The notes: generated from the letters alone by a model not told the origin. 64,000 nucleotides of DNA from Escherichia coli (GCF_029227855.1 NZ_CP074356.1); one strand, 5' to 3'. Counted from the stretch's first letter, positions 59,428-63,021 are shown. A program made the numbers and translations.

Positions 59428-59760
59428 TTGACAACCGCCCCGCTCACCCTTTATTTATAAATGTACTACCTGCGCTAGCGCAGGCCAGAAGAGGCGCGTT
59501 GCCCAAGTAACGGTGTTGGAGGAGCCAGTCCTGTGATAACACCTGAGGGGGTGCATCGCCGAGGTGATTGAACGGCTGGCCACGTTCATCATCGGCTACA
59601 GGGGCTGAATCCCCTGGGTTGTCACCAGAAGCGTTCGCAGTCGGGCGTTTCGCAAGTGGTGGAGCACTTCTGGGTGAAAATAGTAGCGAAGTATCGCTCT
59701 GCGCCCACCCGTCTTCCGCTCTTCCCTTGTGCCAAGGCTGAAAATGGATCCCCTGACACG
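59428..59760 (+). promoter_or_regulatory. lysC promoter and 5-prime leader containing the lysine riboswitch (L box)
   Basis: -35 TTGACA at 59428-59433; long GC-rich structured leader with L-box-like elements (AGAGGCGC ..., GGAGG, CCGAGG, GGCTG ... ACCAGAAG) ending at the SD GAGGTAG before ATG 59769; aptamer boundaries approximate. Confidence 0.65.
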
Positions 59761-59768
59761 AGGTAGTT

Positions 59769-61118
59769 ATGTCTGAAATTGTTGTCTCCAAATTTGGCGG
59801 TACCAGCGTAGCTGATTTTGACGCCATGAACCGCAGCGCTGATATTGTGCTTTCTGATGCCAACGTGCGTTTAGTAGTCCTCTCGGCTTCTGCTGGTATC
59901 ACTAATCTGCTGGTCGCTTTAGCGGAAGGGCTGGAACCTGGCGAGCGATTCGAAAAACTCGACGCTATTCGCAACATCCAGTTTGCCATTCTGGAACGTC
60001 TGCGTTACCCGAACGTTATCCGTGAAGAGATTGAACGTCTGCTGGAGAACATTACTGTTCTGGCAGAAGCGGCGGCGCTGGCAACGTCTCCGGCGCTGAC
60101 AGATGAGCTGGTCAGCCACGGCGAGCTGATGTCGACCCTGCTGTTTGTCGAAATCCTGCGCGAACGCGATGTTCAGGCACAGTGGTTTGATGTACGTAAA
60201 GTGATGCGTACCAACGACCGATTTGGTCGTGCAGAGCCAGATGTAGCCGCGCTGGCGGAACTGGCCGCGCTGCAGCTGCTCCCACGCCTCAATGACGGCT
60301 TAGTGATCACCCAGGGATTTATCGGTAGCGAAAATAAAGGTCGTACAACGACGCTTGGCCGTGGAGGCAGCGATTATACGGCAGCCTTGCTGGCGGAGGC
60401 TTTACACGCATCTCGTGTTGATATCTGGACCGACGTCCCGGGCATCTACACCACCGATCCACGCGTAGTTTCCGCAGCAAAACGCATTGATGAAATCGCG
60501 TTTGCCGAAGCGGCAGAGATGGCAACTTTTGGTGCAAAAGTACTGCATCCGGCAACGTTGCTACCCGCAGTACGCAGCGATATCCCGGTCTTTGTCGGCT
60601 CCAGCAAAGACCCACGCGCAGGTGGTACGCTGGTGTGCAATAAAACTGAAAATCCGCCGCTGTTCCGCGCGCTGGCGCTTCGTCGCAATCAGACTCTGCT
60701 CACTTTGCACAGCCTGAATATGCTGCATTCTCGCGGCTTCCTCGCGGAAGTTTTCGGCATCCTCGCGCGGCATAATATTTCGGTAGACTTAATCACCACG
60801 TCAGAAGTGAGCGTGGCATTAACCCTTGATACCACCGGTTCAACCTCCACTGGCGATACGTTGCTGACGCAATCTCTGCTGATGGAGCTTTCCGCACTGT
60901 GCCGGGTGGAAGTAGAAGAAGGTCTGGCGCTGGTCGCGTTGATTGGCAATGACCTGTCAAAAGCCTGCGGCGTTGGCAAAGAGGTATTCGGCGTACTGGA
61001 ACCGTTCAACATTCGCATGATTTGTTACGGCGCATCCAGCCATAACCTGTGCTTCCTGGTGCCCGGCGAAGATGCCGAGCAGGTGGTGCAGAAGCTGCAT
61101 TTTAATTTGTTTGAGTAA
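59769..61118 (+). CDS. lysC: Aspartokinase III, lysine-sensitive
   Basis: 449 aa (MSEIVVSKFGGTSVADFDAMNRSADIVL ...). Confidence 0.97.
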   Translation: MSEIVVSKFGGTSVADFDAMNRSADIVLSDANVRLVVLSASAGITNLLVALAEGLEPGERFEKLDAIRNIQFAILERLRYPNVIREEIERLLENITVLAEAAALATSPALTDELVSHGELMSTLLFVEILRERDVQAQWFDVRKVMRTNDRFGRAEPDVAALAELAALQLLPRLNDGLVITQGFIGSENKGRTTTLGRGGSDYTAALLAEALHASRVDIWTDVPGIYTTDPRVVSAAKRIDEIAFAEAAEMATFGAKVLHPATLLPAVRSDIPVFVGSSKDPRAGGTLVCNKTENPPLFRALALRRNQTLLTLHSLNMLHSRGFLAEVFGILARHNISVDLITTSEVSVALTLDTTGSTSTGDTLLTQSLLMELSALCRVEVEEGLALVALIGNDLSKACGVGKEVFGVLEPFNIRMICYGASSHNLCFLVPGEDAEQVVQKLHFNLFE

Positions 61119-61262
61119 TATTTCCCTACTGGCGTATAACGCTCACCGATTGTTATACGCCATCCTCACTGAAAACATAGATTAAATAATATCTGAAAAG
61201 CAAAATCACTCCTGTAGAACAGTATTATAATCACCGAAAAATATCATTTAACAGGAGTGTTA

Positions 61263-62189
61263 ATGGCTACTTTAATGGAAAAAGATGCACTTTTAAACGG
61301 AGCCAGTCAGTGCATCGCGTTTTTATCAAATATCATTGATAATTGCTCAGTTTCGTCGCATCAGGATTCAGGCGATGCTCTCAAGCGATTAGTCAGCTAT
61401 CGCGATTATCTTTATTCTACCCCCGCTGAACTTGTTGATTTTACACAAGGTAAGATTCTCCTTCAGCAGGTAAGAACTCAATATCAGCATGAATTCAACA
61501 ATACTACGCATTCAGAAAATAAAGCATCTTTTGATTCTATTTGGCAGCGTCTGACAAATCATGAAGTCACACCGCAACAGCATCCCATTGGTTTTGTTTT
61601 AGGTGGGCAACCCGGAGCAGGTAAATCATCTCTGATTGAATTAGCCAAAAGAGAGACAAAAGATAATATAATGATTATTAACGGTGATGATTTTCGATTT
61701 CTACACCCTGATTTTAATTATATCTACCAAAATTATGGGGATGATTTTGTTACCCATACAGCGAAATTTTCCGGCGAAACGGTCGAACGTGCAATTGAGA
61801 GAGCGATAGTCAGTAAACTCAACATTGTTGTCGAAGGAACATTTCGTAATGCCGCGACGCCGTTACAAACATTAAAAAAACTCAAAGATGCAGGCTACCA
61901 AACAGAAGTCATGATAAAAACAACCTCAGCGGCATTAAGCTGGGAAAGCACCAATGAACGGTATAGTAAGGACAAAGAGGCGGGAAATATTGCCCGAAAA
62001 GTGGATAAAAACCACCATGATATCGTCACCGGTTTGCTGGCAGAAAATGCCCGCAAGGTGTTTGCTTCGAACCTGTCAGATAAGTTTGCGGTGTATTCGC
62101 GTGAGAAGATGATATTTAGTTCACAAGCGGCAACGAATGACGATATTGCAACACTTATACAGAATGAAATCAGCGGGAATACACAATAA
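61263..62189 (+). CDS. Zeta-toxin-family P-loop kinase with N-terminal extension (EzeT-like single-chain toxin-antitoxin candidate)
   Basis: 308 aa from ATG 61263 (SD AGGAG 61253-61257; ORF track starts at GTG 61257). Walker A GGQPGAGKSS around residue 115 and colinear blocks matching zeta/PezT (IMIINGDDFRFLHPDF, NIVVEGTFRN, ... HDIV ... YSRE); AT-rich. Confidence 0.75.
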   Translation: MATLMEKDALLNGASQCIAFLSNIIDNCSVSSHQDSGDALKRLVSYRDYLYSTPAELVDFTQGKILLQQVRTQYQHEFNNTTHSENKASFDSIWQRLTNHEVTPQQHPIGFVLGGQPGAGKSSLIELAKRETKDNIMIINGDDFRFLHPDFNYIYQNYGDDFVTHTAKFSGETVERAIERAIVSKLNIVVEGTFRNAATPLQTLKKLKDAGYQTEVMIKTTSAALSWESTNERYSKDKEAGNIARKVDKNHHDIVTGLLAENARKVFASNLSDKFAVYSREKMIFSSQAATNDDIATLIQNEISGNTQ

Positions 62190-62224
62190 TAATAAGAGCT
62201 GATGGCGTGAAATAACGCCGGGCT

Positions 62225-63016
62225 TTATGCCCGGCGCATTACCGTCTGGTACATTAAGCTATCCAGTTCCTTAACGTCCCCTTCTCTGCTATCCGGTAAC
62301 AGCGGTGGAATTTCCCCACGCGCCTGTTCCGCACGAATAAACGCATGTAACAATGGACGGCGCGGACCATATTCCGCTTCTCCTGCGCGCTGTTTACGTT
62401 CCAGTAATTCGTCTATTTCTGCACGTAACGGCGCATCAAGTTCGCTTCCCGCCAGTAACTCAGCAAAGCGCATTGGCGGCACGCCTTTTCCCGCTTCGAC
62501 CCAGCGCACGGCCAGCAGCGGACGCAGCACGTAAAAGTATTTTTTCAGTCGAACTTCATCGCCCTGCAAATATCCGCGGAAGTTTTTCTGCGCCATCGAA
62601 TAGTAATGCCAGCGCGCACGCAGCGGAGAAAACCACATTGGGACCATTGCCTTAAGCGCCGTTATCGTTTCTTCATCTTGTTGATAGACCACCGGAGAAT
62701 CCAGCCATTCTATCAGCGTCGGGTTCGCGCCTTTCAATAATCCCAGCGCCTTACGCCACTCCCAACCGGAAACATCTAACTCGTCGTCGATGGGCAGCTC
62801 GATAACATCGCGCGGCGGCTCCACCCGCAGATACCATTCCAGCGGGTGAACATACAAAAACCGTACATCGTAGTCGCTGTCGGGCGAGGCAAACCCCCAG
62901 CCGCGGCTCCCGGATTCACAGGCATACAGCACTTTCACGCCGTAGCGCCGTTCTATTTCTTTTAACTGCTGCGATACCCGTTCGCGCATCGCAGCACTGA
63001 CTCCATTTAATGGCAT
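62225..63016 (-). CDS. Polymerase-beta-superfamily nucleotidyltransferase, family not assigned
   Basis: 263 aa from ATG 63016 (ORF track starts at GTG 63025); motif ESGSRGWGFASPDSDYDVRF (GS-x9-SD-x-D); SD AAAGGGTGAG contains the stop of the upstream SPFH gene. Confidence 0.7.
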   Translation of the reverse strand: MPLNGVSAAMRERVSQQLKEIERRYGVKVLYACESGSRGWGFASPDSDYDVRFLYVHPLEWYLRVEPPRDVIELPIDDELDVSGWEWRKALGLLKGANPTLIEWLDSPVVYQQDEETITALKAMVPMWFSPLRARWHYYSMAQKNFRGYLQGDEVRLKKYFYVLRPLLAVRWVEAGKGVPPMRFAELLAGSELDAPLRAEIDELLERKQRAGEAEYGPRRPLLHAFIRAEQARGEIPPLLPDSREGDVKELDSLMYQTVMRRA

Positions 63017-63021
63017 GTTAC

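Follow-up and report, generated by a model that had tools for sequence, protein, structure and literature searches.

The open reading frame at positions 61263 to 62189 (plus strand) of the window, by which we mean the whole 64,000-nucleotide stretch of Escherichia coli DNA analyzed here, is almost certainly ezeT, a chromosomal E. coli gene that encodes a type II toxin-antitoxin as one chain. The gene is EzeT itself rather than a relative, and as such it is already published and not new. This identification follows from an identical protein and from a lysC-adjacent islet of 3.4 kb that matches the published context. The translation equals the product WP_000212693.1 of NZ_CP025856.1, annotated there as “zeta toxin family protein” and named “the dual TA EzeT” in a 2023 FEMS review on PezAT systems (PMC10532202); the original description of EzeT is that of Rocker and Meinhart 2015 (Mol Microbiol 97:589). 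At the DNA level, a megablast of positions 61100 to 62300 gave 100% identity over 1201 bases to NZ_CP025856.1 and many further E. coli genomes, including an O104:H4 strain. Using the same tool, the region was found in 1,506 of 5,426 complete E. coli genomes (about 28%), with 1,372 records at ≥99% identity, and every copy was chromosomal. The first-pass annotation, made from the sequence alone, had proposed a single-chain zeta toxin of the EzeT type, and the identical DNA, the accession, and the islet length (3430 bp versus the published 3.4 kb) all bear it out; the present analysis found no evidence contradicting the identification. The first-pass annotation had picked out an already published system from the bare sequence, and nothing in the window's gene departs from the published one.

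In blastn, homology with K-12 breaks off exactly at the lysC stop and is picked up again upstream of yjbD, 3,430 bp farther on (ending at 6019 and resuming at 9450 in the coordinates of L001, compared with K-12 locus L002), and the islet takes the place of 122 bp that K-12 has between the two genes. Published accounts place EzeT in a “3.4-kb islet” (PMC5812544) and describe aspartokinase 3 genes adjoining it in E. coli B1 strains (PMC10532202). The window holds the left part (61119 to 64000), with ezeT, a nucleotidyltransferase gene, and a slipin gene, and the islet continues for ca. 548 bp past the window end. As the first-pass annotation had it, ezeT is convergent with an SPFH-nucleotidyltransferase pair, annotated in RefSeq as a nucleotidyltransferase-domain gene (263 amino acids, 62225 to 63016, minus strand) and a slipin/SPFH gene (375 amino acids, 63022 to 64000, minus strand, its 5′ end beyond the window), the latter with weak HflK/HflC similarity. 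The nucleotidyltransferase-domain protein, an islet neighbor that does not belong to the toxin module, had no PADLOC or NCBIfam match. We considered whether ezeT and the pair form one system and rejected the idea, as each occurs without the other and their G+C contents differ (40% versus 51 to 54%). The pair was detected in 1,631 genomes, in some of them without ezeT and beside P2-like tail genes, and ezeT was also found with the pair largely deleted. Given that the two occur apart, the toxin gene is an independent module.

Between the convergent genes lies a G+C-rich hairpin, CGCCGGGC-TTTAT-GCCCGGCG, exactly at 62216 to 62236 as first described, but it is not purely intergenic, as had been implied, since the nucleotidyltransferase stop codon (62225 to 62227) sits in its loop. 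It was more stable than shuffled sequence on both strands (z of −2.7 on the plus strand and −3.5 on the minus strand), and only the minus-strand transcript carries a partly U-rich tail after it. The hairpin is likely a terminator for the minus-strand pair and a weaker one for ezeT. A terminator scan requiring a T run did not call it because no such run follows.

The reading frame itself is sound. It opens with an ATG at 61263, runs for 308 codons plus a stop, has the same coordinates as the RefSeq CDS (product WP_000212693.1), and is preceded by a Shine-Dalgarno sequence, AGGAG, at 61253 to 61257, 5 nt before the ATG. The split relatives described below all keep the ribosome-binding core GGAG; the base before it, A in ezeT, is T in L007. 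Farther upstream, a TATAAT −10 hexamer at 61226 to 61231 has no recognizable −35 partner and is kept, in alignment, in the two-gene relatives L005 and L007. A consensus scan requiring both hexamers found no promoter upstream of ezeT, in agreement with the weak promoter published for the gene, in which the −10 is present and the −35 absent (PMC4803016). The lysC stop ends at 61118, leaving a spacer that is AT rich (34% G+C), as noted at the outset, but 144 bp long instead of the 145 bp first reported. The claim that no separate antitoxin gene precedes the toxin also stood: among frames of ≥30 amino acids touching the spacer, the single one is a 37-amino-acid frame overlapping the 3′ end of lysC. 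The spacer does contain a stem-loop, GGCGTATAAC...GTTATACGCC, at 61130 to 61162 on the plus strand, with an RNA folding energy of −17 kcal/mol (z of −5.7). None of 200 shuffles was equally stable, and a U tract is absent; the structure is possibly the end of the lysC transcript. The G+C content of ezeT (40%) is well below that of lysC and of the nucleotidyltransferase gene (54% each).

The C-terminal part, residues 84 to 308 (61512 to 62186, plus strand), is a zeta-type UDP-GlcNAc kinase domain by Pfam, by PDB matches, and by fold. The block-by-block similarity to zeta and PezT kinases reported in the first pass is strong by every measure used: the Pfam Zeta_toxin model (PF06414) covers residues 101 to 282 with an E value of 1.8e-40 (139 bits), and sequence matches to PezT (2p5t_B) and zeta (1gvn_B) have E values of 5e-33 and 5e-27. 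The NCBIfam PezT model gave 130 bits versus an equivalog cutoff of 470, so the protein is a relative of PezT and not PezT itself. An AlphaFold model of the full-length chain, built on 117 sequences, had a mean pLDDT of 91.3 and a pTM of 0.89, and its kinase domain superposed on zeta 1gvn_B with a root mean square deviation of 1.7 Å over 221 columns (Foldseek E value of 2.6e-15, target-normalized TM score of 0.76).

The catalytic apparatus is conserved. The Walker A sequence GGQPGAGKSS begins at residue 114, close to the position of ca. 115 first given for it; its P-loop (G114-G-Q-P-G-A-G-K121-S122) is encoded at 61602 to 61628 on the plus strand, and its lysine, K121, corresponds to zeta K46 and is invariant in all 83 homologs occupying the column. 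EzeT residues 106 to 237 align with zeta without gaps at an offset of 75, which places D142 (codon at 61686 to 61688, plus strand) opposite the catalytic base, Asp67 in zeta and Asp66 in PezT; it is invariant in 82 of 82 homologs. We mapped ten catalytic and substrate-binding residues of zeta, and nine are the same in EzeT, namely, K46 (K121), D67 (D142), E100 (E175), E116 (E191), T118 (T193), R120 (R195), T128 (T203), R158 (R233), and R171 (R245). The exception is T121, which is changed to N196, and mutation of the equivalent residue in PezT affected toxicity only mildly (PMC3062530). Asp67 has been described as the catalytic base at the 3′-OH of UDP-GlcNAc, and roles for Arg120, Thr128, and Glu100 are described in the same work (PMC3062530). 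Along similar lines, K121, D142, R145, and the block E191-G-T-F-R195 are invariant among the 82 to 86 homologs present per column, while the other P-loop positions are 93 to 100% conserved. A lack of conservation of the Walker A and aspartate residues had been named as what would speak against a zeta kinase, and K121 and D142 are both conserved.

The P-loop lies 75 residues later than in zeta (K121 versus K46) because of the fusion of an N-terminal domain, which agrees with the extension of ca. 80 residues first noticed. This domain, a cis-antitoxin domain of residues 1 to 82 (61263 to 61508, plus strand), is predicted to be a three-helix bundle, with helices at residues 4 to 27, 30 or 33 to 52, and 60 to 79 in both AlphaFold models, that is, of the full-length protein and of the domain alone. 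When modeled alone it had a pLDDT of 88.5, and the linker at residues 80 to 89 had the lowest value of the full-length model (67). Among natural structures in the PDB, the antitoxin PezA matches the domain best. At the sequence level, no Pfam match, Epsilon_antitox included, was found for the domain and 43 relatives (44 sequences), and epsilon, PezA, and ng-epsilon1 were absent at an E value of ≤10 from PDB searches with either the N-terminal 101 residues or the 44-sequence family profile. In this family, M1, T3, L4, M5, K7, D8, and L10 form the only invariant or nearly invariant block. Support for a link to known antitoxins thus comes from the modeled fold and from gene position, a sequence-level link not being demonstrable. 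The other danger raised in the first pass, that the segment belongs to an unrelated fused domain, did not materialize, as it folds like PezA and is homologous to small free-standing reading frames that precede zeta kinases, where an antitoxin gene would lie.

These free-standing homologs came to light among the relatives of the kinase domain. In 9 of 120 kinase-domain homologs, the P-loop lysine lies near residue 122 (eight proteins of Escherichia and Pseudocitrobacter and the distant P0118), and in nearly all others it lies near residue 40. The closest proteins of the latter kind (P0010 to P0013) are 68 to 69% identical to the toxin part of EzeT, and each is preceded by an 82-amino-acid frame whose end and the toxin start share 11 nt. 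This frame begins MATLMEKDALLNG..., like EzeT, and is 49 to 56% identical to EzeT residues 1 to 83 (E values of 1e-26 to 9e-30). One such two-gene operon (L007/L008) is in a plasmid leading region, flanked by ParB/PsiA-type genes, and another (L005) is chromosomal; the L007 locus had no megablast match among PLSDB plasmids.

Comparison of these operons with ezeT locates the fusion. They have in common the TATAAT hexamer, the GGAG core, and the first 13 codons. The two-gene relatives have two frames with the 11-nt overlap ATGAAGTATAA, whereas ezeT has one frame, with 11 extra nucleotides and the toxin's own ATG lost. In DNA alignment, these 11 nt fall at codons T81 to S84 (ca. 61503 to 61513, plus strand; the exact placement depends on the alignment), and they are absent from the two-gene relatives, at their antitoxin-stop/toxin-start overlap. 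The junction agrees with the boundary used experimentally, where residues 1 to 82 were set against a protein lacking residues 1 to 83. The Escherichia and Pseudocitrobacter junctions have “NTTH” in common, and in a neighbor-joining tree of kinase domains, without bootstrap support, fused and split forms interleave within the Enterobacterales. M137, downstream of the P-loop, is the one in-frame start codon from residue 21 to residue 200, and therefore the kinase cannot be translated without the N-terminal domain. The naturally split operons, set beside ezeT with its 11-nt junction, offer a matched pair for studying the effect of fusion.

The N-terminal domain belongs to a family that occurs ahead of zeta kinases in several phyla. 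A profile search recovered 67 proteins, mostly free-standing, 79 to 88 amino acids long, and without Pfam domains. When 100,044 species genomes were scanned, the pattern M-[AC]-T-[LF]-M-[EQ]-K-D-x-L occurred at 52 loci, distributed over Pasteurellaceae, Neisseria, Moraxella, Succinivibrionaceae, Helicobacter, Campylobacter, Treponema, Veillonellaceae, and others. A zeta-kinase CDS, in some cases partial or truncated, lies directly downstream of 28 of the 55 reading frames that start with the motif; 4 are fused to the kinase, 20 are apparent orphans with no zeta kinase detected downstream (some in tandem arrays), and 3 lie too near a contig end to classify. Free-standing members are paired with zeta kinases in Pasteurellaceae, Neisseriaceae, Succinivibrionaceae, Helicobacter, Campylobacter, and Treponema, and motif-bearing frames are present in Moraxella and Veillonellaceae. 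In 16 extracted pairs, the gap between antitoxin and toxin ranged from −35 to +23 nt.

Fusion also occurs outside the group of EzeT. The N-terminal domain of P0118 is 77% identical to free-standing Pasteurellaceae frames versus 35% to EzeT, and those of P0118 and of L043 (Pasteurellaceae bacterium Macca) are both far nearer to the free-standing Pasteurellaceae frames than to EzeT. In a rough neighbor-joining tree, both proteins group with Pasteurellaceae toxins, and all deeper branches are two-gene forms. From these affinities and the tree placement, the Pasteurellaceae fusions are separate from that of EzeT, and the view that the split form is ancestral, with the Pasteurellaceae fusions as separate events, holds. 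The fusions look like small frame-joining indels at overlapping stop and start codons. More broadly, and only tentatively, we propose that these proteins form a widespread Pfam-less antitoxin family with a PezA-like fold, normally encoded by free-standing genes of 68 to 90 amino acids translationally coupled to zeta kinases, with repeated fusion of at least two origins (Escherichia/Pseudocitrobacter and, once or more, Pasteurellaceae). Independent fusions in the Pasteurellaceae suggest that the single-chain design has been repeatedly favored. The split relatives, the 11-nt junction, the Pfam-less family, and the independent fusions may be the only parts of this work that add to the literature.

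The published experiments, taken here from reviews, describe what the two parts do. EzeT is a UDP-N-acetylglucosamine (UNAG) kinase, and deletion of the N-terminal 83 residues leads to lysis and accumulation of UNAG-3P at or below 30°C, while the full-length protein is harmless and residues 1 to 82 rescue the truncated toxin in trans (PMC4803016, PMC4826407, PMC10532202). At 37°C the truncated toxin shows no activity, its toxicity being confined to temperatures below about 30°C (PMC4803016). Combining these data with the present sequence, the kinase domain (ca. residues 84 to 308) would phosphorylate the 3′-OH of UDP-N-acetylglucosamine in an ATP-dependent manner, and the product, UNAG-3P, would poison peptidoglycan synthesis and lyse the cell. 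The bundle of residues 1 to 82, tethered by a short flexible linker, would keep the kinase inactive in cis. Helix 1 of epsilon and of PezA reaches into the ATP site with its N-terminal end (PMC5923241), and the family studied here is conserved at its extreme N terminus, which makes the same mode of blockage likely; by this analogy, the conserved start of helix 1 would occupy the ATP site, and we regard its blocking that site as the most likely arrangement. The invariant N-terminal motif indicates which residues matter for this question. With one frame and no internal start before M137, the toxin is never made without its antidote. Because the two are fused, activation must act on the finished protein, for instance, by cleavage of the linker or displacement of the N-terminal domain, and a model in which free antitoxin is degraded, the usual one for activation, is excluded by this design. 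To our knowledge, no toxin-antitoxin system described before EzeT had its antidote built into the toxin as a domain.

Other explanations of the locus have to be weighed against EzeT. One is that a two-gene epsilon/zeta or PezAT module has been overlooked or misframed, with the 308-amino-acid frame being an annotation or sequencing artifact; the closest relatives are indeed two-gene operons, from which ezeT differs by an 11-nt indel at the junction. However, the single frame recurs in well over a thousand independently assembled genomes (the 1,372 records at ≥99% identity) and is kept in three further Escherichia alleles and the Pseudocitrobacter ortholog, the 144-bp spacer offers no alternative frame, and the fused protein has been studied experimentally as one chain (PMC4803016). 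The conserved single frame refutes the two-gene reading, and we consider it practically inconceivable. Only marginally more credible, and still extremely improbable, is a decayed and harmless zeta-like relic with an unrelated leftover N-terminal segment and without toxin-antitoxin activity in its host. The lack of toxicity of full-length EzeT and the inactivity of the truncated toxin at 37°C (PMC4803016) could be read in this way, as could the damaged alleles of some strains (an 18-amino-acid deletion in P0002 and many fragments of 55 to 119 amino acids on long contigs) and the frequency of orphan N-terminal-domain genes. Against decay, the catalytic and UNAG-binding residues checked are intact save for the T121 counterpart (N196), a position of mild effect in PezT, and the kinase domains of the Escherichia alleles are 91 to 93% identical while their N-terminal domains have drifted to 77 to 83%, which indicates constraint on the kinase. 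Kinase activity, together with lysis upon deletion of the N-terminal 83 residues, has moreover been published (PMC10532202, PMC4803016).

A bolder candidate reading, compatible with the identification as EzeT, is that fused proteins of the EzeT type serve as suicide sensors set off by phage or stress. EzeT would then be an abortive-infection sensor like CapRel(SJ46), in which a phage or stress factor binds or cleaves the N-terminal domain and the released kinase lyses the infected cell. A fused toxin-antitoxin in a small variable islet with a patchy distribution (1,506 of 5,426 genomes) is in keeping with this, as are the G+C contrast with flanking genes (40% versus 54%), the flexible linker suggested by the AlphaFold pLDDT, a P2-like prophage abutting the islet in one strain, and the analogy with CapRel drawn in PMC10865869. 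Yet PADLOC-DB 2.0 gave EzeT only a subthreshold match to PDC-M04B (E value of 8e-4, 17.5 bits) with no qualifying stretch, no recognized defense genes adjoin ezeT, the two neighboring proteins had no PADLOC match, and no phage phenotype for EzeT is reported in PMC4826407, PMC10532202, PMC4803016, PMC5812544, or PMC10865869. We therefore deem such a role unlikely, although clearly less so than an artifact or a relic.

The single-chain EzeT of the window is a member of the zeta toxin family (PF06414) by profile match and zeta fold. PezAT of Streptococcus pneumoniae (PDB 2p5t) has a homologous kinase with the same P-loop and catalytic aspartate (D66 in PezT), but PezA is made as a protein of its own and has an additional helix-turn-helix repressor domain at its N terminus, whereas the antitoxin part of EzeT is fused and has no DNA-binding domain; the two antitoxins have no detectable sequence similarity and share the three-helix fold alone. 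With no helix-turn-helix domain, no separate antitoxin gene, and 130 bits against the cutoff of 470, EzeT falls outside PezAT. The epsilon/zeta system of plasmid pSM19035 from Streptococcus pyogenes (PDB 1gvn and 3q8x) has the same kinase fold (1.7 Å), the nine mapped residues, and the same substrate, UDP-GlcNAc (PMC10532202, PMC3062530). There, however, epsilon is free and encoded in a three-gene omega-epsilon-zeta plasmid operon, in contrast to the fused EzeT, which has neither an upstream reading frame nor an Epsilon_antitox match and so is not a classical epsilon/zeta module.

The ng_epsilon1/ng_zeta1 system of Neisseria gonorrhoeae (PDB 6epg) is likewise a Gram-negative zeta-family kinase acting on UDP-sugars, but ng_zeta1 is only a distant structural match to EzeT (Foldseek E value of about 1e-3). 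Its antitoxin binds as an extended chain and not as a bundle (PMC5923241), and the kinase phosphorylates the 4′-OH with a broader substrate range (PMC10532202). CapRel(SJ46), from phage defense, resembles EzeT in carrying toxin and cis-acting antitoxin in one polypeptide, but its toxin is unrelated (a tRNA pyrophosphokinase), its domain order is reversed, and its trigger is a phage capsid protein. Compared with EzeT as described by Rocker and Meinhart in 2015, the gene analyzed here agrees in sequence and in kinase residues, with an N-terminal domain in the same frame; the protein is identical, the lysC-adjacent 3.4-kb islet and the two-domain layout are the same, the boundary lies near residues 82/83, and there are no differences.

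Internally deleted and apparently truncated versions of ezeT were found within E. coli itself. One natural EzeT allele (P0002, 290 aa) carries an in-frame deletion of 18 aa that falls between two GDDF repeats, at residues 141 to 144 and 159 to 162, and removes the stretch immediately after D142, the counterpart of the zeta catalytic Asp67. The toxin of this allele was probably inactivated through repeat slippage. A set of E. coli fragments of 55 to 119 aa (P0121-P0149) covers only the portion of EzeT that forms the N-domain. Their presence on long contigs (up to 5 Mb) in many E. coli assemblies suggests that they represent frameshifted or truncated alleles in which the antitoxin half would be retained and the kinase lost.

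An EzeT-like protein was also encoded on a 3.7-kb contig (JAIJJM010000308.1, L048) binned as an actinobacterial Collinsella sp. MAG. It has the same length (308 aa) and the same N-terminus as E. coli EzeT, and its kinase domain (residues 86 to 308) is 100% identical; E. coli DNA placed in the wrong bin is the most likely source of this contig.

Homologues of the N-domain were also detected as separate ORFs. Two E. coli loci (L012, 5001-5264, and L013, 4755-5018) contain an orphan of 87 aa, 55% identical to the EzeT N-domain, flanked on one side by a queE-like radical-SAM gene and on the other by an FGGY kinase gene; no toxin gene follows the orphan. A comparable queD/queE locus in another enterobacterium holds the split operon of the chromosomal two-gene relative L005. 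Antitoxin-like ORFs also occurred in tandem arrays of two or three. No zeta kinase was present downstream of those in Succinatimonas and in a gammaproteobacterial MAG (L036, ca. 2800-3400, and L056, 7123-7567); in Helicobacter (L015, 12442-12940), the second copy is followed by the start of a kinase. On a plasmid-like contig of Pasteurella multocida (L010, 1702-3240), we observed a 79-aa N-domain homologue adjacent to a VbhA/Fic toxin-antitoxin pair, ParA, and an IncFII RepA. Since the 1.7 kb downstream of this homologue had no gene calls, a zeta gene there may be decayed, or present but uncalled.

Regarding the surroundings of ezeT in the window, a strong stem-loop (GGCGTATAAC / GTTATACGCC; 61130-61162; fold of -17 kcal/mol, z of -5.7) lies shortly 3' of the lysC stop, within the islet-specific spacer. 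The stem-loop lacks a trailing U tract and may mark the end of the lysC transcript or a processing site. The lysine riboswitch 5' of lysC (59481-59677; Rfam RF00168, 99.5 bits) is expected and ordinary. On the other side, the nucleotidyltransferase-domain and slipin/SPFH proteins are encoded by a convergent pair (62225-64000, continuing to ca. 64149) that had no PADLOC match and only weak similarity to HflK/C. The pair is separable from ezeT and was found in 1631 of 5426 E. coli genomes. In E. coli KOr019 (L003, 1-3500), P2-like tail/baseplate genes adjoin the nucleotidyltransferase gene at the place expected for ezeT, and therefore the islet edge may be a prophage insertion point.

The single-chain architecture is also found in Pasteurellaceae, where an N-domain and a zeta kinase are joined in proteins of 306 to 307 aa (L043, 6296-7216, from Pasteurellaceae bacterium Macca, and P0118, at L009, 126-1049). 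Both halves of these fusions are closest to the two-gene systems of Pasteurellaceae, and the fusions arose independently of E. coli EzeT.
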